A stretch of 64,000 nucleotides of DNA, taken from NCBI GenBank assembly GCA_022827885.1, contig JAJEIP010000008.1, forward strand, positions 768 to 64,767. Direction: 5' to 3'. This document shows, in pieces, positions 6,654-56,909 of this stretch. A model generated the notes under the pieces. The model saw only the letters and a program-made list of their open reading frames with translations. It did not search any database and was not told the origin of the DNA. Position 1 is the stretch's first letter. Each line of letters starts with the position of its first letter. Origin of the DNA: Candidatus Poribacteria bacterium. Lineage in GTDB: Bacteria > Poribacteria > WGA-4E > WGA-3G. A program made the translations under genes and the position numbers.

Positions 6654-7271
6654 CTAACTTTGGCCCCCAAGGTTCGCCATATATAAAATGAATACCGTGT
6701 TGCCAACAGCGAGCACTGCGCCGACGACGGTTTGGAGAAGTGTGTGTCGTTTTCGGTAAACCCGCGCCCAAGCAATCAGCGGGGTCAACAGAAATAGCCA
6801 GCCGAATTGTGGATTCACGAGCATGACGAGGACGGTCACACATCCCGTGGCGACACTGCTGTGAAAGCTGATTTTCCACATCGGGGTAATTGCGGAAAAA
6901 ATAAGACTATTTACAATGTAAGCAATGCCTGCCCAGACGATTTCCCGTGCCGCACCCAGCTGATGTAGTAGAACAGTCCCGACAACCATACTGATGACTG
7001 TACAGCATAAAGGCAGAAGCCGCTCTTCCCGGTTATGCAAGTGCAGATCGCTGACTTTAGCATACCGCGCCATCACCGCGATTGATAATACCGGTAGCAC
7101 GGTAACAAATAAGACAACAATTGCCAACCAGCGGAGTGCGTTTTGGGGATCCGCGTGTTTTTGGATAACACCCACAGCGGTTGCGATTGGAACCAAAAAT
7201 GGACTGAAGAGAACAGAAGTGCCCCACGCGATGCGCGCCGGCATTGTCGATAAATCGCTACGCTCCATCAA
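6654..7271 (-). CDS. PAP2-superfamily-like integral membrane protein
   Basis: 205 aa with about 6 TM segments. KISFHSS and ARVYRKRHTLLQ resemble degenerate PAP2 motifs (PSGH; SRxxxxxHxxxD). The start abuts the stop of the upstream peroxiredoxin gene. Confidence 0.4.
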   Translation of the reverse strand: MMERSDLSTMPARIAWGTSVLFSPFLVPIATAVGVIQKHADPQNALRWLAIVVLFVTVLPVLSIAVMARYAKVSDLHLHNREERLLPLCCTVISMVVGTVLLHQLGAAREIVWAGIAYIVNSLIFSAITPMWKISFHSSVATGCVTVLVMLVNPQFGWLFLLTPLIAWARVYRKRHTLLQTVVGAVLAVGNTVFILYMANLGGQS

Positions 7272-8282
7272 TTAATTTGACGTTTCCAAATTTTTGAAGA
7301 AATCAATTAAATCCGCACCGTGTGTGCTTGCGTTGACCTCTTTATCAATTTCAAGAATCTTCCCTGTTTTATCAATGATAACAGCTAACCGTTGAATCTT
7401 TCCATCTGGAGCATTCGTCGCGCCAAAGAGGAGTGCGAGGTTCCGTCCGGTGTCTACCAAGAGCGGGAAATTCAACTGATTTTCTTCCGAAAATTTCTGG
7501 TGCGAAGCCGCATCATTCGACGTAATCCCAAAAATCTGTGCATCATATTTCTCAAAACGACTCGACTCATCACGGAGTGAGCAAACTTGAGCCGTTCAGC
7601 CACGCCCAAAATCGCGTGGATAGAAGGCTAACACGACATTCTTTTCCTGATGCAATTCACTGAGTTGGTGCGTTTTACCGGTCCCATCGGTTGCAATAAA
7701 ATCTGGGGCGGGTTGCCCAACCGCTATCCTTGGTAAGACGTCCTGAAGCAGTGCTGCGACATCTTCACCGTGCGTTTTGACATTGACATCTGTATCAATG
7801 GCACGGATGTATCCAGCTTTATCAATGATGAAAGTTACCCGTTTTGAGGCATTGAAACTTTCAATGATACCACTATACTGGTGGCTCACCTCAAATTCGG
7901 TATCGGCTAAGAGTGAAAATCCGAATTTCTGTTCTGCCCGAAACCGCTTGTGCGATTCGACGGAATCAACACTGACCCCGAAAAGGACACTTCCAGTGGC
8001 TTCTATCTCGCTCAAATTATCCCGGAGCGAGCAAAGTTCAGTCGTTCAGCCACCTGTAAAATCTTTTGGATAGAAAGCGAGAACGACATTCTTCTTCCCT
8101 AAATAATCGCTGAGACTCCGCTCAACGCCTTCTTCATCTTTCAATGTGAAATCGGGGGCAACCATGCCTACTTTTAGTGTGTTTGGCGTTGTCACTGCTT
8201 CCTCCCCTGAAGCTGCTGAAATTAAAATCGCTGTTATGAGGATAACAGCCCAGACGCTTGCATTCAATCGCGTTTGAAACAT
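7272..8282 (-). CDS. Secreted tandem BCP/PrxQ-type peroxiredoxin with two in-frame TGA (probable selenocysteine) codons
   Basis: ORF-track pieces 8046..8282, 7596..8015 and 7272..7475 share one frame and are separated only by TGA at 8046-8048 and 7596-7598. The TGAs replace the peroxidatic Cys: FYPKDFTGG[TGA]TTELCSLRD and FYPRDFGRG[TGA]TAQVCSLRD. Each TGA is followed by a hairpin 14 nt downstream. Confidence 0.75.
7561..7581 (-). promoter_or_regulatory. Candidate bacterial SECIS hairpin 2
   Basis: Stem CUCACUC/GAGU(c)GAG (7 bp, one bulge) with loop CGUGAU. The stem starts 14 nt after UGA 7598-7596, the same geometry as hairpin 1. Confidence 0.6.
8007..8031 (-). promoter_or_regulatory. Candidate bacterial SECIS hairpin 1
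   Basis: Stem CUCGCUC/GAGCGAG (7 bp) with loop CGGGAUAAUUU. The stem starts 14 nt after UGA 8048-8046. Confidence 0.6.
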
Positions 8283-8399
8283 CGCGTTATGCCTCCGGTA
8301 AATACGTTAGTTAATGGAATTATACGCTATTTGGCTATAGATGTCAAGTAAATTTGCGTTTAGCATGCCCCTGATGTGGGCTTCGGTAACGGCGTGATT

Positions 8400-9308: not shown

Positions 9309-10262
9309 TTAGTCCGGTAGCGGACCCTCTATCTGGTCAACAAAACGAATAGAATTTATAACATCACGGAGGTCTGTGAGCGGGACTTGCCGGTTACGGA
9401 CGCACTCCACGAAATGGCGATGCATTGTTAGTACGCCTTCATAGTTCGGTGTATCGCGCTGGTCCACACCGTCAACTTCCCAACCTCCCATAACACTTCT
9501 GTTGTTGTCCTCATAAATTTCGATTTCTTCTGGGATTTTCATGTAACAGCCGATGCCGACACCGTGCAATTCAGAGCGTAGCACGCGTCCCCCAGACGCA
9601 CGACTCCCAAAAAGCACACCTGTGACGTTGTTATCGAACCGGACGAAGGCGGTGTAGAAGTTGCGTTGTTCGGCATCGAATGTATCGCGATGCGCCGTAA
9701 CTTCCACGGGTTCACCCCCTGCCATATAGCGGAGGAGATCGACCACGTGGCAGACATCGTTCCAAAGTGTTGTCGTAAATTCTCGGTTTCCGCCGAGCAT
9801 TTGTTTGTTAAAGGTGGTAACGGCTAACGTAACGGGCCCCTTTTCTGCGACGCGGCGCATCGCTTCGCGTGTAACAGCGGCATATCTCCGCTGAAACCCG
9901 ACCATTCAATAGACATCGTTGGCGACTGCTGCCTCAAGGAGTTGTTGCGTTTCATCGCTATTCGCACCGGGTGGTTTTTCGATGAACAGGTGCTTGCCGG
10001 CGTTGAGGCAATCCAGAGCGGGTTGTAAAATCCACTTCTCGTTCATCACACAATAAACGACATCTAAGTCTAAGGTGTCCAGCATCTTCCGGTGGTCTGT
10101 GAAGGTGTGCGGAAACTCGTATTTCTGGGCAACTTGTGCGAGTTTCTCTTCGTCGAGTTCACAGGCGCCAAGCATCTCGACATCATCTTCCAGTCGATTC
10201 ACGTTTGGATAATGCGCGCCTTGACTGCGTCCCCCTGCACCGATAAATCCTGCTTTAAGCAT
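9309..10262 (-). CDS. Gfo/Idh/MocA family oxidoreductase interrupted by in-frame TGA (9906-9908); pseudogene or recoded
   Basis: N-terminal half: GFIGAGGRSQ Rossmann fold plus the FIEKPP motif. C-terminal half starts MVGFQRRY (the canonical MVGFNRRF). The two ORFs are contiguous and in frame across ...NDVY[TGA]MVGF... Confidence 0.6.
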
Positions 10263-11327: not shown

Positions 11328-11456
11328 ATACAGTAAAGGCTTTCACCGAACCATAGATGTCAATTTAGGGGTTCCCTACAATTTTGCTAATGGATAGGGT
11401 GGGTTTCTATACCCACCTCACTGATGTGCAGCTGGTGCATAACGGAGGTTCCGCTC

Positions 11457-12755
11457 ATGACGGATTTGTTAGCAGCACGCGCACAGATGGCGATGTCACT
11501 CGCGTTTCATATTATCTTTGCTGTCATCGGTATAGCAATGCCGTTGCTGATGGTAATTGCCGAGGGGTTATGGCTGAGAACGCGAGAAGAGGTGTACCTG
11601 ACGCTTGCGAAGCGGTGGGCAAAAGGCACTGCGATTATGTTCGCTGTTGGGGCAGTCTCTGGCACTGTCTTGTCTTTCGAGCTCGGTTTGTTGTGGCCGA
11701 ATTTCATGGCTTACGCCGGCCCGATTATCGGCATGCCGTTCTCGTTGGAGGGGTTTGCGTTTTTCCTTGAGGCAATCTTCTTGGGGCTTTACCTCTACGG
11801 TTGGGACCGCATCCCAAAATACGCACACTGGTTCGCGGGTGTGATGGTGCTGCTCGGCGGCACTTTGTCCGGCATTTTCGTTGTCACCGCCAATGCTTGG
11901 ATGAACACGCCTACCGGATTTTCGGTTGTGAATGGGGAAGTAACAAACGTCGATCCGATTGCGGCGATGTTAAATCCCTCTTCGTTCAGTCAAACACTTC
12001 ACATGACCATCGCTGCGTTTCTGACGGTCGGGTTCGCTGTGGCGGGTATCCACGCCTATTTTCTGCGGCGCGACCCAAATAACCTTTTCCATCGCCGAGC
12101 GTTCGCTATTGCCTTGAGTGTCGGGGGTGTGTTCGCGCTTCTTCAGCCGATTTCGGGAGACATCAGTGCCAAAAAGGTTGCGAAGTATCAGCCTATCAAA
12201 CTCGCAGCGATGGAGGCACAGTGGGAAACGGAACGCGGCGCGCCCCTACGCATCGGTGGTATTCCTAACGAAGATACTGAAGAGACCCGATATGCGCTTG
12301 AGATACCGAAGGCACTCAGTTTCCTCGCGCATTCTGACTTCAACGCTGAGATTATGGGACTCAAGGCGGTGCCACGCGAAGATCGTCCACCTGTGGCAAT
12401 CGTTCATTTCGCATTTCAGATTATGGTAGCGTGTGGAATTGTGTTGATTGCCGCGGGTGTTCTCGGGGGTTGGCTCGCGTGGAAGCACAAAAGTTTGCCA
12501 ACCCAACGCTGGTACCTTCGGCTTATTACATGTTGCGCACCCCTTGGATTTATTGCTATTGAAGCGGGGTGGACGGTCACGGAAGTCGGGCGACAGCCGT
12601 GGATTATCTATAATTATATGCGCACTGCAGAGGCGGTAACTCCAATGCCGAATCTTGTTGTGCCTTTTATCGGTTTTACGGTGCTTTACATTTTCCTCTC
12701 AATTATTGTCGTTATCCTATTGCGTCGTCAGATATTCCAGAGTCCGCGCTTGTAA
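11457..12755 (+). CDS. cydA: Cytochrome bd ubiquinol oxidase subunit I
   Basis: MTDLLAARAQMAMSLAFHIIFAVIG..., FFLEAIFLGLYLYGW, ANAWMNTPTG and a Q-loop (AMEAQWETERGAPL). GGAGG lies 8 nt before ATG 11457; the ORF track starts at 11424. Confidence 0.9.
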   Translation: MTDLLAARAQMAMSLAFHIIFAVIGIAMPLLMVIAEGLWLRTREEVYLTLAKRWAKGTAIMFAVGAVSGTVLSFELGLLWPNFMAYAGPIIGMPFSLEGFAFFLEAIFLGLYLYGWDRIPKYAHWFAGVMVLLGGTLSGIFVVTANAWMNTPTGFSVVNGEVTNVDPIAAMLNPSSFSQTLHMTIAAFLTVGFAVAGIHAYFLRRDPNNLFHRRAFAIALSVGGVFALLQPISGDISAKKVAKYQPIKLAAMEAQWETERGAPLRIGGIPNEDTEETRYALEIPKALSFLAHSDFNAEIMGLKAVPREDRPPVAIVHFAFQIMVACGIVLIAAGVLGGWLAWKHKSLPTQRWYLRLITCCAPLGFIAIEAGWTVTEVGRQPWIIYNYMRTAEAVTPMPNLVVPFIGFTVLYIFLSIIVVILLRRQIFQSPRL

Positions 12756-12802
12756 GCAGTATTAAGAAATAATCTTCCGATTTTTCCAGAGGTCTCGAAA
12801 CC

Positions 12803-12825
12803 GTAGGGGCGGGGTTTCCCCGCCC
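12803..12825 (+). repeat. REP-like GTAG hairpin (GTAGGGGCGGGGTTTCCCCGCCC) in the cydA-cydB spacer
   Basis: GTAG followed by the GGGGCGGGG/CCCCGCCC stem with a TTT loop. Confidence 0.7.
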
Positions 12826-12873
12826 GCCACCAACTTCCGTTAATTGTAGATTTTGCTGTAATGGAGAAACCTG

Positions 12874-13932
12874 ATGTTAAGCCTTGAATTCTGCATCGCC
12901 TGCGTGATGCTTATTTCTCTGATTATCTATATGTTGACAGGTGGCGCGGATTTTGGTGGCGGCATTTGGGATCTGTTCGCGACGGGTCCACGTGCGAAGG
13001 CACAACGGTCGCTTATCTCAGAGGCTATCGGACCGATCTGGGAGGCGAACCACGTCTGGTTGATTGTGATTGTCGTTCTGCTTTTCGTGGCGTTTCCTGT
13101 CGCATTCGCAGCGATTAGCACGGCTTTGCATATTCCACTGACACTAATGCTCATCGGTATTGTGCTTCGTGGCACGGCGTTTGTCTTTCGCACCTATGAT
13201 GTCCAATCGGATACAACACACCGTCGTTGGAGTCGAATATTCGCCGTTGCGAGTGTCATCACGCCTGTAATGTTAGGGGTTACGTTAGGCGCGGTCGCCT
13301 CCGGCACGATTCATGTTAACGTGGAAAGCGGACAGGTAGAGACGGATTTCATCTCGGCGTGGTTTGCACCGTTCCCGTTTGCAATCGGTTTTTTCACCTT
13401 AACACTGTGTGCCTTGCTTGCGGCGGTGTATCTCACGCTTGAGACTGAAGATCCGGCATTGCGGACGGATTTTCGACGACGTGCTCTCATCGCGGCGGTG
13501 AGTGTTGGCGCGATGGCGGGACTGAGTTTTGTCTTATCTGCTGACGGAGCACCCGCGATTCGACGGGGTCTCAGTAATGCTCCGTGGTCGATTCCGTTTC
13601 ACATCTTGACGGGTGCGGTGGCTCTATGGGCGATCTGGACGGTTTGGAAACGTCAATTTCGGCTGGCGCGCATCCTCGTTCCGATACAGGTTACGCTCAT
13701 CGTTTTCGGTTGGGGGCTGGCACAGTATCCGTATCTCATCACGCCAGACTTAACCTTTTCAAATACTGCTGCCCCGGATGCCGTGCTGCGTCCGTTGCTG
13801 ATTGTGTTAGGGGCGGGTGGTGTTTTGTTAGTGCCTGCATTCTGGTATCTCTACGCCGTGTTTAAGGGGACAGCGCAAAGGACAAGGCGAACTGAAGAGG
13901 AGAGTAATGCGTATCAAGACAACTCGGCGTGA
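12874..13932 (+). CDS. cydB: Cytochrome bd ubiquinol oxidase subunit II
   Basis: 352-aa polytopic protein directly downstream of cydA with GGADFGGGIWDL, the typical CydB N-terminal motif. Confidence 0.85.
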   Translation: MLSLEFCIACVMLISLIIYMLTGGADFGGGIWDLFATGPRAKAQRSLISEAIGPIWEANHVWLIVIVVLLFVAFPVAFAAISTALHIPLTLMLIGIVLRGTAFVFRTYDVQSDTTHRRWSRIFAVASVITPVMLGVTLGAVASGTIHVNVESGQVETDFISAWFAPFPFAIGFFTLTLCALLAAVYLTLETEDPALRTDFRRRALIAAVSVGAMAGLSFVLSADGAPAIRRGLSNAPWSIPFHILTGAVALWAIWTVWKRQFRLARILVPIQVTLIVFGWGLAQYPYLITPDLTFSNTAAPDAVLRPLLIVLGAGGVLLVPAFWYLYAVFKGTAQRTRRTEEESNAYQDNSA

Positions 13933-45501: not shown

Positions 45502-47400
45502 ATGTCTAATAAGAAGCTTTATCTCATACTTGGCTGTGTATTCATCGCGTATACCGTGCTACTAACCGTTGCACCGGCATTTGCACAGGACGCGACCGAA
45601 GCAGAATATCGCGCCTTCCCCAAGATCGGCAGCCGAAATGCGGCATGGATCGCTGCCCAACTCCACCTGTTGTTCGGATCTTTTATCCTCGGTGTCCCGA
45701 TGTTTGCCGTCATCATCGAATTTATCGGCTGGAAGACGAAGGACATGCGATATGATCGGATGGCGCAGGAGTTTATCAAGCTCTGTATGGGCGCGTTTTC
45801 AACGACAGCCTTGCTCGGCGGTGTTCTCGTCTTTATCCTCATCTGGTGTTATCCGAAAGTCATGACGAAACTCAGTGGGATATTCGGACCGACGATGATT
45901 TTTTACGTCATCCTGTTCTTCGGCGAAACCTTTACGCTTTACCTTTACTCCTACGGATGGGATAAGATGCAAGGGCGCCATAAGGGGTGGCATCTCTTCC
46001 TCGGCGTGCTTCTGAATGTATTCGGCACTGCGATTATGTTCGTTTCTAACGCATGGTTGAGTTACCAAACCAGTCCGGCAACCCAATACGGTGTCCTCTC
46101 TGAAGGCAGACGGAAATCTTGGATTGAGGAGAAATTGGCTGCGGATCCAGCACTCACGCCTGAGACCGCTATGGAAGGTGTCACAAGCCATACGATGGTG
46201 CCGCTTCACAATGAAACGACCGGCGAGTTCATGGGAACCGTTTGGGATGCCGTCAACAATTTTACATGGATGCCGGTTAACATCCATCGCCTCGTGGGTA
46301 ACATTGCCTTCGGAGGCTCGATTGTTGCGGCTTATGCGGCGTTCCGATTCCTCGTCGCGAAGACGAAAGAGGACAAAGCACATTACGATTGGATGGGCTA
46401 TACCGGAAACTTCATCGCACTCTGTGGACTGATACCTCTGCCTTTCCTCGGTTATTGGCTCGGTAGAGAAATCTACATGTTCAACAACACGATGGGCATT
46501 AACATGATGGGTAGCCTCTTTTCGTGGCTATTTATCATTCAGGCAGTTATGATCGGGGTCCTGTTTATTGGCGCGAACTACTACCTCTGGTCAGGCATGG
46601 GGCGGATCGAAGGGGCGGAGATCTATGCACGATACCGTCCGTATATGATTACCGTTATCATTATTTGTGTCGCAATCTGGATGACCCCGCGGACGCTTTC
46701 TAAGATTTCAACTGCCAGCGAACTGAGCGCGATGGGCGGTGCAAACCACCCACACCTCGGATTGTTCGGCTTGATGACTGCCAAAAATACGGCAGTTAAC
46801 ATCATCATTCTCACGACCTTCTTGAGTTTCCTATTTTATCGGCGTTCAGGGAAGATACCTACGGCGAGTTGGAAAAAGATAGGCAACATTGGGATCTCCG
46901 CTCTCTTCTTCCTCGCCACCGTTTCCATCGTGGTTATCGGCATCGTTGGGTTTACCGTCCCGACAGATTTGCGGGTCAATATCCTTACGCCGTATCAGGT
47001 CCTGGTTGCACTCGCGGTGATGGCAATCGTCACAATCGTTGATATTTTCATGTACCGCAAGGCGACAACATCTGGCACTATCAAATGGGGGGAGATGACG
47101 GATCGCTCCCAATACGTGTTAATTCTCGTGGCAATTACGTTCACTTCTTTGATGGGACTGATGGGATACGCACGCTCAGGGTTGCGAGAGGCGTGGCATA
47201 TCTTCGGTGTGATGCAAGATACATCTCCGGATGCGTTTACGCCGCTTCTCAGTGAGGCGGTGAACATGGTGGCAATCATCATGGTAGCTTTCTTCGCGCT
47301 CGTCGGATTTATTTTCTGGCTCGGTTTGTGGGGTGAAAAGAAGAAGGAAGAGAAGGCAGCTACCCCCGAAGCCGCTGTTACTGCTGAGGGTGATGACTAA
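45502..47400 (+). CDS. Cytochrome bd subunit I-like (CydA-like) membrane protein lacking a Q-loop and a CydB partner
   Basis: 632 aa. Aligns by eye with the canonical CydA in this window: QLHLLFGSF vs LAFHIIFAV; FFGETFTLYLYSYGW vs FFLEAIFLGLYLYGW; VSNAWLSYQTSP vs TANAWMNTPTG; NIHRLVGN vs TLHMTIAA. It has extra C-terminal TM helices and an N-terminal signal/anchor. Confidence 0.7.
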   Translation: MSNKKLYLILGCVFIAYTVLLTVAPAFAQDATEAEYRAFPKIGSRNAAWIAAQLHLLFGSFILGVPMFAVIIEFIGWKTKDMRYDRMAQEFIKLCMGAFSTTALLGGVLVFILIWCYPKVMTKLSGIFGPTMIFYVILFFGETFTLYLYSYGWDKMQGRHKGWHLFLGVLLNVFGTAIMFVSNAWLSYQTSPATQYGVLSEGRRKSWIEEKLAADPALTPETAMEGVTSHTMVPLHNETTGEFMGTVWDAVNNFTWMPVNIHRLVGNIAFGGSIVAAYAAFRFLVAKTKEDKAHYDWMGYTGNFIALCGLIPLPFLGYWLGREIYMFNNTMGINMMGSLFSWLFIIQAVMIGVLFIGANYYLWSGMGRIEGAEIYARYRPYMITVIIICVAIWMTPRTLSKISTASELSAMGGANHPHLGLFGLMTAKNTAVNIIILTTFLSFLFYRRSGKIPTASWKKIGNIGISALFFLATVSIVVIGIVGFTVPTDLRVNILTPYQVLVALAVMAIVTIVDIFMYRKATTSGTIKWGEMTDRSQYVLILVAITFTSLMGLMGYARSGLREAWHIFGVMQDTSPDAFTPLLSEAVNMVAIIMVAFFALVGFIFWLGLWGEKKKEEKAATPEAAVTAEGDD

Positions 47401-55085: not shown

Positions 55086-56909
55086 ATGCACGATAACGAA
55101 CATGCGTCACATCATCACGAAGAAAGTTTTATTAGCAAATATATCTTTTCGCTCGACCACAAGATGATCGGCAAGCAGTTCCTGATCTACGGACTGCTTA
55201 TGTTTTTCCTCGGTGGTGGGCTTGCACTCCTCTTTAGATGGCAACTCGCCTATCCCGAAAAACCGTTACCCATCATCGGGGCATCGGAACAGTATATGGA
55301 AGAGGGTGAAGTCGTCACCGGTGCCGACAGGATGTGGGAGAATATTTACGAATCCGAGAAAGAGGAATGGCTTGAGGTAAACATGCCCAACGGCGTCGTC
55401 GAACCGGCATTTTACAATATGCTGTTTACGATGCATGCCACCATTATGGTGTTCTTCGTCGTGGTTCCGATCTTGGTAGGGGCTTTCGGAAATTTCCTGA
55501 TTCCGTTGATGATTGGCACACGGGATATGGCGTTTCCTATCCTCAATATGCTCTCATTTTGGTTGGCTGTCCTTGCGGCAATTATTATGGTCGTCGGTTT
55601 CTTTGTCCCCGGCGGACACGCTGCAGCCGGATGGACAGGCTACGCACCCCTCTCCTCTGACCCGCAGTGGACAGGTGTTGACTGGGGACAGAACCTCTGG
55701 GCGATTAGCCTGCTCATTCAAGGGTTCTCCTCACTGGTCGGGTCTATTAACTACATTACGACGATTATCAATATGCGCGCACCTGGAATGACGTTCTTCC
55801 GACTCCCGTTGGTCATCTGGTCGCTCTTCATCGTCGCGATTCTGTTGCTACTCGCATTCCCTGTGCTGTCCTCAGCCCTTGCACTTCTCATCTTTGATAG
55901 GCTTGCGGGAACGACGTTCTTTACTGCGACCACAGAAGGCGGCGGCGATCCGCTCTTGTGGCAGCACCTCTTCTGGTTCTTCGGACACCCAGAGGTCTAT
56001 ATCCTTATCTTACCCGGCATGGGGATCGCTTCCGAATTGATTGCTGTCTTCTCACGGAAACCGATCTTCGGATATCGTTCCATGGTCTACGCAATGATCG
56101 CCATCGCGTTTCTGGGATGGATTGTGTGGGGACACCACATGTTCCAGAGCGGTATGCGACCCGGACTCGGCTCTGTGTTCATGACGACAACGATGCTCAT
56201 TGCGGTGCCGTCAGCCATCAAGACATTTAACTGGCTCGGCACAATGTTCCGAGGTGCAATCAAATTCACGACACCGATGCTCCACGGTATTGCCTTTGTT
56301 TCAATGTTTGTGATTGGTGGATTGAGCGGTATCTATATGGCAAATACGCCGGTTGATATCTTTATCCACGATACCTACTACATTGTCGCACACATTCACT
56401 ATGTTGTGTTCGGCGGAAGTCTGTTCGCTATTTTCGGGGGCATTATTTTCTGGTTCCCGAAGATGTACGGACGCTATATGAACGATGTGCTCTCCAAAAT
56501 CCATTTTTGGTTGACGTTCATCGCGTTCAACTGTACCTTCTTCCCGATGCATATTCTCGGCGTGGGTGGACACATGCGGCGTATCTCCAACCCGATGCAG
56601 TATGAATTCCTGCAGACGTTTGAGGGCATGAACATCTTTATCACGATGAGTGCGTTTACCCTTGGGTTTGCACAGTTGATATTGGTCTTTAACTTCTTCT
56701 GGAGCATGTATCGAGGAAAAGTTGCCGAACAGAACCCGTGGCAGGTGACTACCTTGGAGTGGGAGGCACCCACACCTGTCCCACACGGCAATTTCGGTCA
56801 AATTCCGACTGTCTACCGGGGTCCCTATGAATATAGTGTTCCCGGCGAAGAGGATGATTGGACCCCGCAAGCGCGGCCTGAGCATGCGCCCGCAACAAGC
56901 GGTGACTAA
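55086..56909 (+). CDS. coxA: Cytochrome c oxidase subunit I (A-type haem-copper oxidase)
   Basis: 607 aa with WFFGHPEVYILILPGMG and HHMF...VPSAIKTFNW...HDTYYIVAHIHYV. There is an insertion of about 45 aa in the first periplasmic loop. Confidence 0.95.
   Translation: MHDNEHASHHHEESFISKYIFSLDHKMIGKQFLIYGLLMFFLGGGLALLFRWQLAYPEKPLPIIGASEQYMEEGEVVTGADRMWENIYESEKEEWLEVNMPNGVVEPAFYNMLFTMHATIMVFFVVVPILVGAFGNFLIPLMIGTRDMAFPILNMLSFWLAVLAAIIMVVGFFVPGGHAAAGWTGYAPLSSDPQWTGVDWGQNLWAISLLIQGFSSLVGSINYITTIINMRAPGMTFFRLPLVIWSLFIVAILLLLAFPVLSSALALLIFDRLAGTTFFTATTEGGGDPLLWQHLFWFFGHPEVYILILPGMGIASELIAVFSRKPIFGYRSMVYAMIAIAFLGWIVWGHHMFQSGMRPGLGSVFMTTTMLIAVPSAIKTFNWLGTMFRGAIKFTTPMLHGIAFVSMFVIGGLSGIYMANTPVDIFIHDTYYIVAHIHYVVFGGSLFAIFGGIIFWFPKMYGRYMNDVLSKIHFWLTFIAFNCTFFPMHILGVGGHMRRISNPMQYEFLQTFEGMNIFITMSAFTLGFAQLILVFNFFWSMYRGKVAEQNPWQVTTLEWEAPTPVPHGNFGQIPTVYRGPYEYSVPGEEDDWTPQARPEHAPATSGD

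Follow-up and report, generated by a model that had tools for sequence, protein, structure and literature searches.

A 64-kb stretch of DNA from Candidatus Poribacteria bacterium (contig JAJEIP010000008.1), referred to below as the window, encodes what is most probably an exported tandem peroxiredoxin with two selenocysteine (Sec) residues. The gene is read on the minus strand, where translation from 8282 to 7272 gives a single frame of 336 codons followed by a terminal TAA. The only internal stops in this frame are the TGA codons at 8046-8048 and 7596-7598. Standard open reading frame (ORF) finding divides the locus into three TTG-initiated pieces, as a preliminary description made from the sequence alone had anticipated, and the ORF listing and translation reproduce its observation that these pieces share one minus-strand frame broken by the two TGA codons alone. 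The same description proposed that the read-through product is a 336-residue protein composed of a signal peptide and two BCP/PrxQ-type domains. Pfam and NCBIfam agree on the domains, the leader is predicted from sequence, and the motifs FYPKDFTGG-TGA-TTELCSLRD and FYPRDFGRG-TGA-TAQVCSLRD are found as quoted there. Public gene calls of the orthologues are systematically wrong: they are either cut at a UGA or run to full length with Trp at both catalytic sites. The features of the locus are collected in Table 1.

Table 1. Features of the tandem peroxiredoxin locus, in window positions.
Feature	Position	Strand	Details
Tandem peroxiredoxin coding sequence	7272..8282	-	336 residues, two in-frame UGA, TAA stop 7272-7274; full-length orthologues in 80 Poribacteria genomes
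UGA-1, almost certainly a selenocysteine codon, peroxidatic position of domain 1 (residue 79)	8046..8048	-	TGA in 81/81; Cys in P0022 and PDB BCPs
UGA-2, almost certainly a selenocysteine codon, peroxidatic position of domain 2 (residue 229)	7596..7598	-	TGA in 81/81; also TGA in divergent homologues L002, L085-L088
SECIS-like hairpin 1	8002..8035	-	Core stem 8031-8025 / 8013-8007; 11-nt loop CGGGAUAAUUU; lower extension 8035-8032 / 8005-8002
SECIS-like hairpin 2	7558..7584	-	CUCACUC (7581-7575), loop CGUGAU, GAGU-c-GAG (7568-7561); up to 3 more basal pairs
Peroxiredoxin domain 1 (residues 38-161, AhpC-TSA)	7800..8171	-	P72-xxx-T76-xx-U79, Cys84, Arg148; Pfam, NF006960, 3drn, Foldseek
Peroxiredoxin domain 2 (residues about 188-318)	7329..7721	-	P222, Gly226 replacing catalytic Thr, U229, Cys234, Arg298; Pfam
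Probable Sec-type (secretion pathway) signal peptide, residues 1-26	8205..8282	-	Arg5, hydrophobic core 8-21, AAS|GE
Shine-Dalgarno sequence GGAGG	8292..8296	-	9 nt ahead of ATG 8282-8280; conserved upstream of orthologues
Putative sigma-70-type promoter, TTGACA-17 nt-TATAAT	8319..8347	-	12/12 consensus positions
Downstream gene, ~204-residue polytopic membrane protein, weakly PAP2-like	6654..7271	-	Starts 0-3 nt after peroxiredoxin stop

Profile searches were run on the protein with Cys put in at both TGA positions. Pfam returns two matches to AhpC-TSA (PF00578; 233 bits against a cut-off of 26, E 6.6e-70), the best stretch spanning residues 38-161, together with two Redoxin stretches, the better of which spans residues 188-318. 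Among the NCBIfam models, NF006960 (Bcp thiol peroxidase) scores best (180 bits, cut-off 140), again over two stretches, and the nearest solved structures are S. solfataricus Bcp1 (PDB 3drn, E 1.9e-25), other BCPs and AhpE. An AlphaFold2 model (predicted local distance difference test, pLDDT, 85; predicted template modelling score, pTM, 0.82) contains two complete peroxiredoxin folds in addition to a low-confidence helix at residues 8-24 followed by disorder. Foldseek finds Bcp1 (3drn), BcpB (5epf) and AhpE (1xxu) at TM 0.83-0.87 per domain, with 0.87 for domain 1. Against the PDB it yields no precedent for the two-domain arrangement, its matches covering one domain each (TMq about 0.4). The two domains are 39% identical in an ungapped alignment, which indicates an internal duplication.

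The two TGA codons are conserved without exception among the orthologues recovered. With each GTDB species represented by one genome, a scan returned 80 orthologous loci at 66-96% amino acid identity, many of them on closed chromosomes. Of their records, 77 carry Candidatus or uncultured Poribacteria, which are sponge symbionts, in the title, while the other three are unclassified 'uncultured bacterium' metagenome-assembled genomes; together with the window gene they form the 81 sequences used in the alignments. TGA occupies both sites in 80/80 orthologues, and TGC, TGT or TGG never occurs. More distant metagenomic tandem genes and single-domain relatives likewise show TGA, and amino acid conservation runs uninterrupted across each of the codons. 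The peroxidatic Cys of BCP homologues (P0021, P0022 and PDB 2ywn) aligns with both TGA columns, and both codons stand in the context F-x-x-G-[TGA]-T-x-x-x-C-S-L-R-D. The alignment with Cys-containing BCPs and the search for orthologous tandem genes, both proposed in the preliminary description, therefore come out in its favour, and the assembly error it had named as a possible refutation is excluded by 80 independent assemblies. A recent nonsense mutation is ruled out by the same pattern.

This conservation bears on the simplest alternative, in which the locus is a pseudogene or three separate small genes encoding fragments of 78, 139 and 67 residues, and the TGAs are genuine stops. The three TTG-started pieces given by ORF finding are what such a locus would look like, and some public calls (P0018-P0020, 200 residues) do end at the second TGA. 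However, 80 species keep both TGAs and the reading frame, as do distant homologues from metagenomes. The stops would fall inside the active-site helix and leave every fragment with a broken thioredoxin fold, while the AlphaFold2 model of the read-through product predicts two complete domains. A true nonsense codon in the same window also behaves differently. The gene of a Gfo/Idh/MocA oxidoreductase (9309-10262, minus strand) is split by an in-frame TGA (9906-9908) at a Cys codon, with a fortuitous 6-bp hairpin (CAGCGG/CCGCUG) about 12 nt past it. This TGA was considered as a further Sec codon and rejected, as 70 of 70 syntenic Poribacteria orthologues, one of them 99.4% identical, have TGC or TGT at the position. 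It is best regarded as a window-specific nonsense mutation or sequencing error, a nascent Cys-to-Sec change being much less likely. Found in one of 71 sequences, it shows how a non-conserved TGA looks in the same loci, unlike the TGAs of the peroxiredoxin. A scan of the window for further in-frame TGA candidates gave nothing convincing. Conservation at the sequence level effectively refutes the pseudogene or three-gene explanation, whose remaining chance is very slight.

A second alternative is a genome-wide reassignment of TGA to Trp or Gly (genetic code 4 or 25). In the public protein collection, homologues P0001-P0017 (L001:987-1997) do carry W at both catalytic positions. The underlying DNA nevertheless has TGA, and its translation with table 11 does not give the database protein; the W is an artefact of code-4 gene calling on short contigs. 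Within the window, TGA ends 10 of 43 long non-overlapping ORFs, and the three codons that the preliminary description cited as normal stops (13930, 18666 and 19675) are all TGA. Moreover, an enzyme with Trp or Gly as its peroxidatic residue would be inactive, and TGA is restricted exactly to the two catalytic columns. Reassignment is refuted by stop-codon usage and its probability is negligible.

Each TGA is followed, within the ORF, by a hairpin resembling a selenocysteine insertion sequence (SECIS). A bacterial SECIS lies just 3' of the UGA and consists of a stem with a small, G-containing apical loop (PMC1088965). In both hairpins the stem starts 14 nt past the TGA, and G is the second base of the loop. 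The core of hairpin 1 (8031-8007) pairs CUCGCUC with GAGCGAG around the loop CGGGAUAAUUU. The sequences and coordinates of the two 7-bp stem-loops, which differ in their stems, check out against the earlier report of them, and the G at the second loop position can be read directly. An Rfam scan of the window gave no match.

Comparative analysis reveals strong constraint on these segments. In the 81-sequence codon alignment, normalised synonymous-codon entropy falls to 0.12 in codons 84-94 and to 0.10 in codons 233-243, as against 0.67 for the remainder of the gene, and these two stretches are its lowest sliding windows (permutation p<1e-5). For example, Ser85 is encoded by TCG in 79 of 81 sequences, while Leu86 (CTC) and Ser91 (AGC) use the same codon in 81/81. 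Synonymous variation thus collapses over the hairpins, which indicates selection on the nucleotide sequence precisely there.

Pairing is also maintained where the sequence changes. Within Poribacteria, 93% of cells pair in hairpin 1, compared with 21-56% in slid registers, and its basal pair occurs as C-G (48), G-C (10), U-G (4), A-U (1) and U-A (1). In hairpin 2, 95% of cells pair, again in a specific register, and one position is either G-U or A-U. Divergent tandem genes (L085-L088 and L002) reveal the ancestral register, CUCNCUC / CGKGAY / GRGN-n-GAG, in both domains, and include compensatory double changes such as AGUC/GACU for GCUC/GAGC. In domain 1 of the core Poribacteria, a change of Glu to Asn (GAG to AAU) removed the inner three pairs, and helix 1 re-registered onto the next GAG, giving CUCGCUC/GAGCGAG with an 11-nt loop. 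The hairpin was therefore kept despite the change in sequence.

A wider set of hairpins was obtained from JGI metagenomes: a DNA pattern built around the TGA and the apical part of the hairpin returned 65 loci, 5 of them spurious. The pattern left the 3' partners of pairs 24-37, 21-41 and 20-42 unspecified. Among 72 distinct hairpins of the family, pairing holds in 94% of cells, and covariation scores 0.288, as against 0.113 for shuffled alignments (0/500 reach 0.288) and <=0.058 in slid registers. Pair 24-37 is found as U-A (29), A-U (15), G-U (14), G-C (7) and C-G (2), pair 21-41 as C-G (54), G-C (8) and U-A (5), and pair 20-42 as G-C (25), G-U (16) and A-U (13). Column 24 lies at the third, synonymous position of a Ser codon; its partner is the first position of a codon for Met, Leu, Ser or Ala, and the two covary. 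The covariation check suggested for the hairpins thus finds them conserved, depleted of synonymous change and covarying in the wider set. By these alignments the RNA structure is real and conserved, and its geometry is the one to be expected for a bacterial SECIS (PMC1088965).

The genes for Sec incorporation were sought in the window and in related loci. Among 20 window ORFs picked by size, the Pfam matches include queA, ruvABC, cydAB, transporters and cytochrome oxidase, and no selA, selB or selD. ARAGORN finds no tRNA in the 64-kb window, the ~1.9 Mb of related loci yield no tRNA-Sec, and tblastn with Escherichia coli SelB and SelD gives no matches in those loci. The same search with E. coli SelA identifies full-length homologues at 49-50% identity in three Poribacteria loci (L074, L064 and L072). 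The ORF in L074 (5922-7355, minus strand) is a selA equivalog by TIGR00474 (614.6 bits, cut-off 267.9) and is separated by 2.6 kb from the peroxiredoxin orthologue on the closed chromosome OZ244563.1. Across the three loci selA is found about 2.6-5 kb upstream of the tandem peroxiredoxin, a loose linkage; the window is arranged differently and does not contain it. Table S4 of Slaby et al. 2017 lists SelA (2), SelB (1) and SelD (1) for Ca. Poribacteria WGA-3G (PMC5649159), and a 2026 study reports Sec-containing hydrogenases in Poribacteria (PMC13582414). The WGA-3G genome corresponds to L048 and carries the tandem gene with both TGAs. The check on Sec genes set out in the preliminary description is thus borne out in part, by selA in three orthologue-bearing genomes and by the SelA, SelB and SelD listed for WGA-3G; the window itself holds none of these genes, and the ~1.9 Mb of related loci hold no tRNA-Sec.

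These genes also bear on a reading in which SECIS- and SelB-dependent recoding of the UGAs inserts Cys, through a tRNA(Sec)-like Cys-tRNA or by mis-charging under scarce selenium, which would make the product a Cys peroxiredoxin of the ordinary kind. Recoding systems of this Sec-to-Cys type are described for some bacteria. However, the selA equivalog near an orthologue in Poribacteria encodes a canonical SelA, the seryl-tRNA(Sec) selenium transferase, and SelD is listed for WGA-3G (PMC5649159). Nor is there an obvious benefit in keeping TGA and a hairpin at two sites in 80 species over plain Cys codons. Insertion of Cys is accordingly rated as improbable.

The gene is preceded by well-defined expression signals. 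The promoter lies about 37 nt 5' of the ATG, and a near-consensus version of it is found upstream in at least 43 of the 80 orthologous loci. Its perfect match to the consensus suggests strong constitutive expression. In the region of the probable signal peptide, Kyte-Doolittle means over 11 residues reach 2.9, and the leader has neither a lipidation Cys nor a twin-Arg motif. N-terminal hydrophobic leaders are shared by the orthologues and by single-domain relatives. These features predict export of the protein, most likely to the periplasm.

The downstream membrane protein gene is adjacent (<60 nt) in 78 of the 80 orthologous loci. Its product matches Pfam PAP2 at E 2e-4, under the family cut-off, and contains the conserved motifs ER..PL, WKISFH and WARxYRxRHT. 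A role for this protein as a DsbD/CcdA-like electron donor was considered and rejected in view of the weak PAP2 match and the PAP2-like motifs; no DsbD/ScsB-type gene was seen adjoining the peroxiredoxin locus. Elsewhere, the window holds the cytochrome bd oxidase genes cydA and cydB, another, divergent ORF resembling CydA, and a gene for haem-copper oxidase subunit I accompanied by cytochrome c genes (11424-13932 +; 45502-47400 +; 55086-56909 +). These oxidase genes indicate an aerobic or microaerobic organism, which fits a need for peroxide defence.

The two domains differ in their catalytic residues. In domain 1 the whole set of P, T, U and R (P72, T76, U79 and R148 in the window) is retained by each of the 81 Poribacteria sequences. 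Domain 2 has P222, U229 and R298, with Gly226 (7605-7607, minus strand) in place of the Thr of P-xxx-T-xx-C. Its motif is FGRG-U, or FGTG-U in six genomes, and the Thr is replaced in all 81 Poribacteria sequences, while more distant tandem homologues retain it (FTGG-U, MTPG-U and FTSG-U). It is plausible that the low intrinsic pKa of a selenol could make this Thr dispensable. The preliminary description placed a resolving Cys five residues after each TGA. In the window this is true of both domains (C84 and C234), and the domain 2 Cys is kept in 80 of 81 sequences. The corresponding domain 1 position is C, N, Q, K or S among the orthologues, and that part of the claim does not extend to them; domain 1 is therefore not uniformly of the 2-Cys type.

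Such differences could mean that one UGA alone is efficiently decoded, so that the main product is truncated, or that domain 1 is a decaying relic and domain 2 the functional unit. In one lineage (L002, 10001-10999; L003; L004; proteins P0018-P0020) domain 1 has indeed decayed, with Ser for Sec and FYP changed to FCPTE, while domain 2 retains its TGA and hairpin. The neighbours in this lineage are GDSL lipase and carbamoyltransferase genes, unlike those in the window. The variable resolving Cys of domain 1 and the shifted register of hairpin 1 in the core Poribacteria, with its 11-nt loop, point the same way. In contrast, domain 1 keeps P, T, U and R in 81/81 sequences, and synonymous suppression at hairpin 1 equals that at hairpin 2. 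In addition, UGA-1 lies upstream of domain 2, which would lose the signal peptide without read-through, and both recodings therefore appear to be needed for an exported product. Either form of this reading is considered highly improbable.

The explanation that best accounts for these observations is an exported tandem peroxiredoxin in which both UGAs are decoded as Sec, each through its own SECIS inside the ORF, and which was born by duplication of a Sec-encoding gene; its probability is put at about 0.88. The two peroxidatic residues are almost certainly selenocysteines. The gene would encode one polypeptide in which a signal peptide of the secretion pathway is followed by two BCP/PrxQ domains, both descended, through internal duplication, from a gene with Sec already in it. 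Each UGA would be recoded by SelB and Sec-tRNA(Sec) bound to the hairpin starting 14 nt downstream within the coding sequence, a SECIS geometry that would place the apical loop 21 nt from the UGA with G as its second base. The mature protein, most likely periplasmic, would use Sec as the peroxidatic residue of each domain to reduce H2O2 or organic hydroperoxides. The selenenic acid of domain 2 would be resolved by the Cys five residues on (UxxxxC), forming an intramolecular selenenylsulfide in an atypical 2-Cys mechanism. Domain 1 is probably a 1-Sec peroxidase, since its Cys is dispensable in orthologues. The reductant would probably be a thioredoxin-like protein of the periplasm that receives its electrons from a transporter of the DsbD/CcdA type.

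Several points weigh against this explanation. Selenium incorporation, peroxidase activity and the identity of the reductant are inferred, and export is predicted from sequence features. Neither the 64-kb window nor the ~1.9 Mb of related loci yielded selB, selD or a tRNA-Sec. Replacement of the catalytic Thr of PxxxTxxC by Gly226 makes peroxidase activity less certain in domain 2. Single-sequence folding of the hairpins gives z = -1.8 and -0.2 relative to shuffles, neither of which is significant; folding energies do not discriminate here, and the evidence for the hairpins is therefore comparative and not thermodynamic. The core Poribacteria hairpins are nearly invariant, with covariation confined to one or two pairs. 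The strong covariation stems from the wider family, which was recovered with a pattern fixing three apical pairs.

A more specific version of the tandem Sec-peroxiredoxin model holds that the two Sec centres are non-redundant. They would form a covalently linked and functionally asymmetric pair with an inter-domain selenenylsulfide or diselenide relay, in which one selenol would attack the peroxide and the other domain would resolve the oxidised centre, and the enzyme would be the main envelope peroxide defence enabling Poribacteria to live in sponge tissue. The proposed asymmetry derives from a domain 1 that keeps its Thr and often lacks a resolving Cys, and a domain 2 that lacks the Thr and always keeps the resolving Cys. 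For the part concerning envelope defence, the near-consensus promoter and the constant pairing with the PAP2-like membrane protein are cited. The proposal as a whole is speculative and rather unlikely.

The tandem gene represents a natural bacterial mRNA that would need two independent SECIS-directed recodings, about 450 nt apart, to yield one protein. The homologous hairpins have drifted into different registers and could thus serve as a useful natural system for studying the tolerance of SelB towards SECIS variation and the efficiency of multiple Sec insertion. SelA and SelB enrichment has been reported in sponge symbionts, in line with selenium as a symbiosis trait (PMC5649159). An apparently exported, probably highly expressed selenoenzyme in all 80 recovered genomes would suggest that peroxide detoxification outside the cytoplasm and the supply of selenium belong to the traits of sponge symbiosis. 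A dedicated annotation model would correct mis-calls in Poribacteria and in related marine metagenome sequences.

Among known proteins, the Cys enzymes of the BCP/PrxQ and AhpE groups (E. coli Bcp, 3drn and Mycobacterium tuberculosis AhpE 1xxu) resemble the tandem protein in sequence, fold, CxxxxC-type spacing and the catalytic Arg. They differ in having Cys and a single domain where the tandem protein has Sec and two domains. The Cys BCP/PrxQ and AhpE enzymes are cytoplasmic. Envelope peroxiredoxins, such as PprX of Caulobacter, are single-domain Cys enzymes reduced via DsbD/ScsB-type transporters. The Poribacteria protein is like them in its probable export to the cell envelope, and they offer a precedent for the recycling of a periplasmic peroxiredoxin. 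PrxU of Eubacterium acidaminophilum (NF040737), which has been characterised biochemically, is likewise a peroxiredoxin with Sec as the peroxidatic residue. The tandem protein is not its equivalog, however, as it scores 111 bits against a cut-off of 270 on the NF040737 profile, which is longer (233 positions). Assignment to the Prx-like thiol:disulfide oxidoreductase selenoproteins (UxxC/UxxU) was also rejected, as the motifs TGGUTTELC and GRGUTAQVC are TxxU with UxxxxC spacing.

The closest known selenoproteins are the marine Sec-containing peroxiredoxins of the TxxU type. This family (COG1225) is represented by 43 genes in the Sargasso Sea data, where it ranks second in abundance among selenoprotein families (PMC1088965), and by 253 genes (pfam00578) in the Global Ocean Sampling data (PMC2398784). 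The Poribacteria gene shares with it the BCP-type AhpC-TSA fold, Sec in P-xxx-T-xx-U and a SECIS hairpin just downstream inside the ORF. The marine proteins have one domain and one Sec, whereas here two domains are fused, with two UGAs and two SECIS elements, and domain 2 lacks the motif Thr. The Global Ocean Sampling study noted fusions of Prx to a PP2C-type phosphatase domain and no Prx-Prx tandem (PMC2398784). In metagenomes, a clade of signal-peptide Sec-BCPs sharing the SECIS comprises about 30 single-domain genes, about 20 tandem genes and two with a C-terminal extension, and the tandem form is a subset of this broader Sec-BCP clade. The two extended genes (at L093:393-458 and L094:2647-2712, with the flanking ORFs) lie on high-GC contigs and encode a signal-peptide Sec-BCP with the same SECIS and a C-terminal extension of about 230 residues.

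Recoding of two UGAs in one polypeptide also has parallels. A 2026 review table lists the TxxU-type Prx family with one Sec and several unrelated double selenoproteins (PMC13188914). Among the latter, MbdU, HUGP/GUXX-star and methyltransferase/UXPK-star are like the tandem protein in combining two UGA recodings in one chain. They have unrelated folds, however, or two different fused domains, and no duplicated peroxiredoxin is among them (PMC13188914). In the literature searched, neither a tandem or double-Sec peroxiredoxin nor a selenoproteome of Poribacteria turned up, and NCBIfam contains no dedicated model for a tandem Sec-peroxiredoxin. The preliminary description could not match the protein to a described one, which implied strong novelty. 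This holds for the exported tandem form with two Sec residues, which appears undescribed, and has to be tempered for its components, as Sec-BCP/Prx proteins are an abundant marine family (PMC1088965; PMC2398784) and double selenoproteins are known (PMC13188914). The new elements appear to be the tandem double-Sec architecture, the export signal and the conservation of this architecture in every recovered Poribacteria orthologue, rather than a new kind of system.

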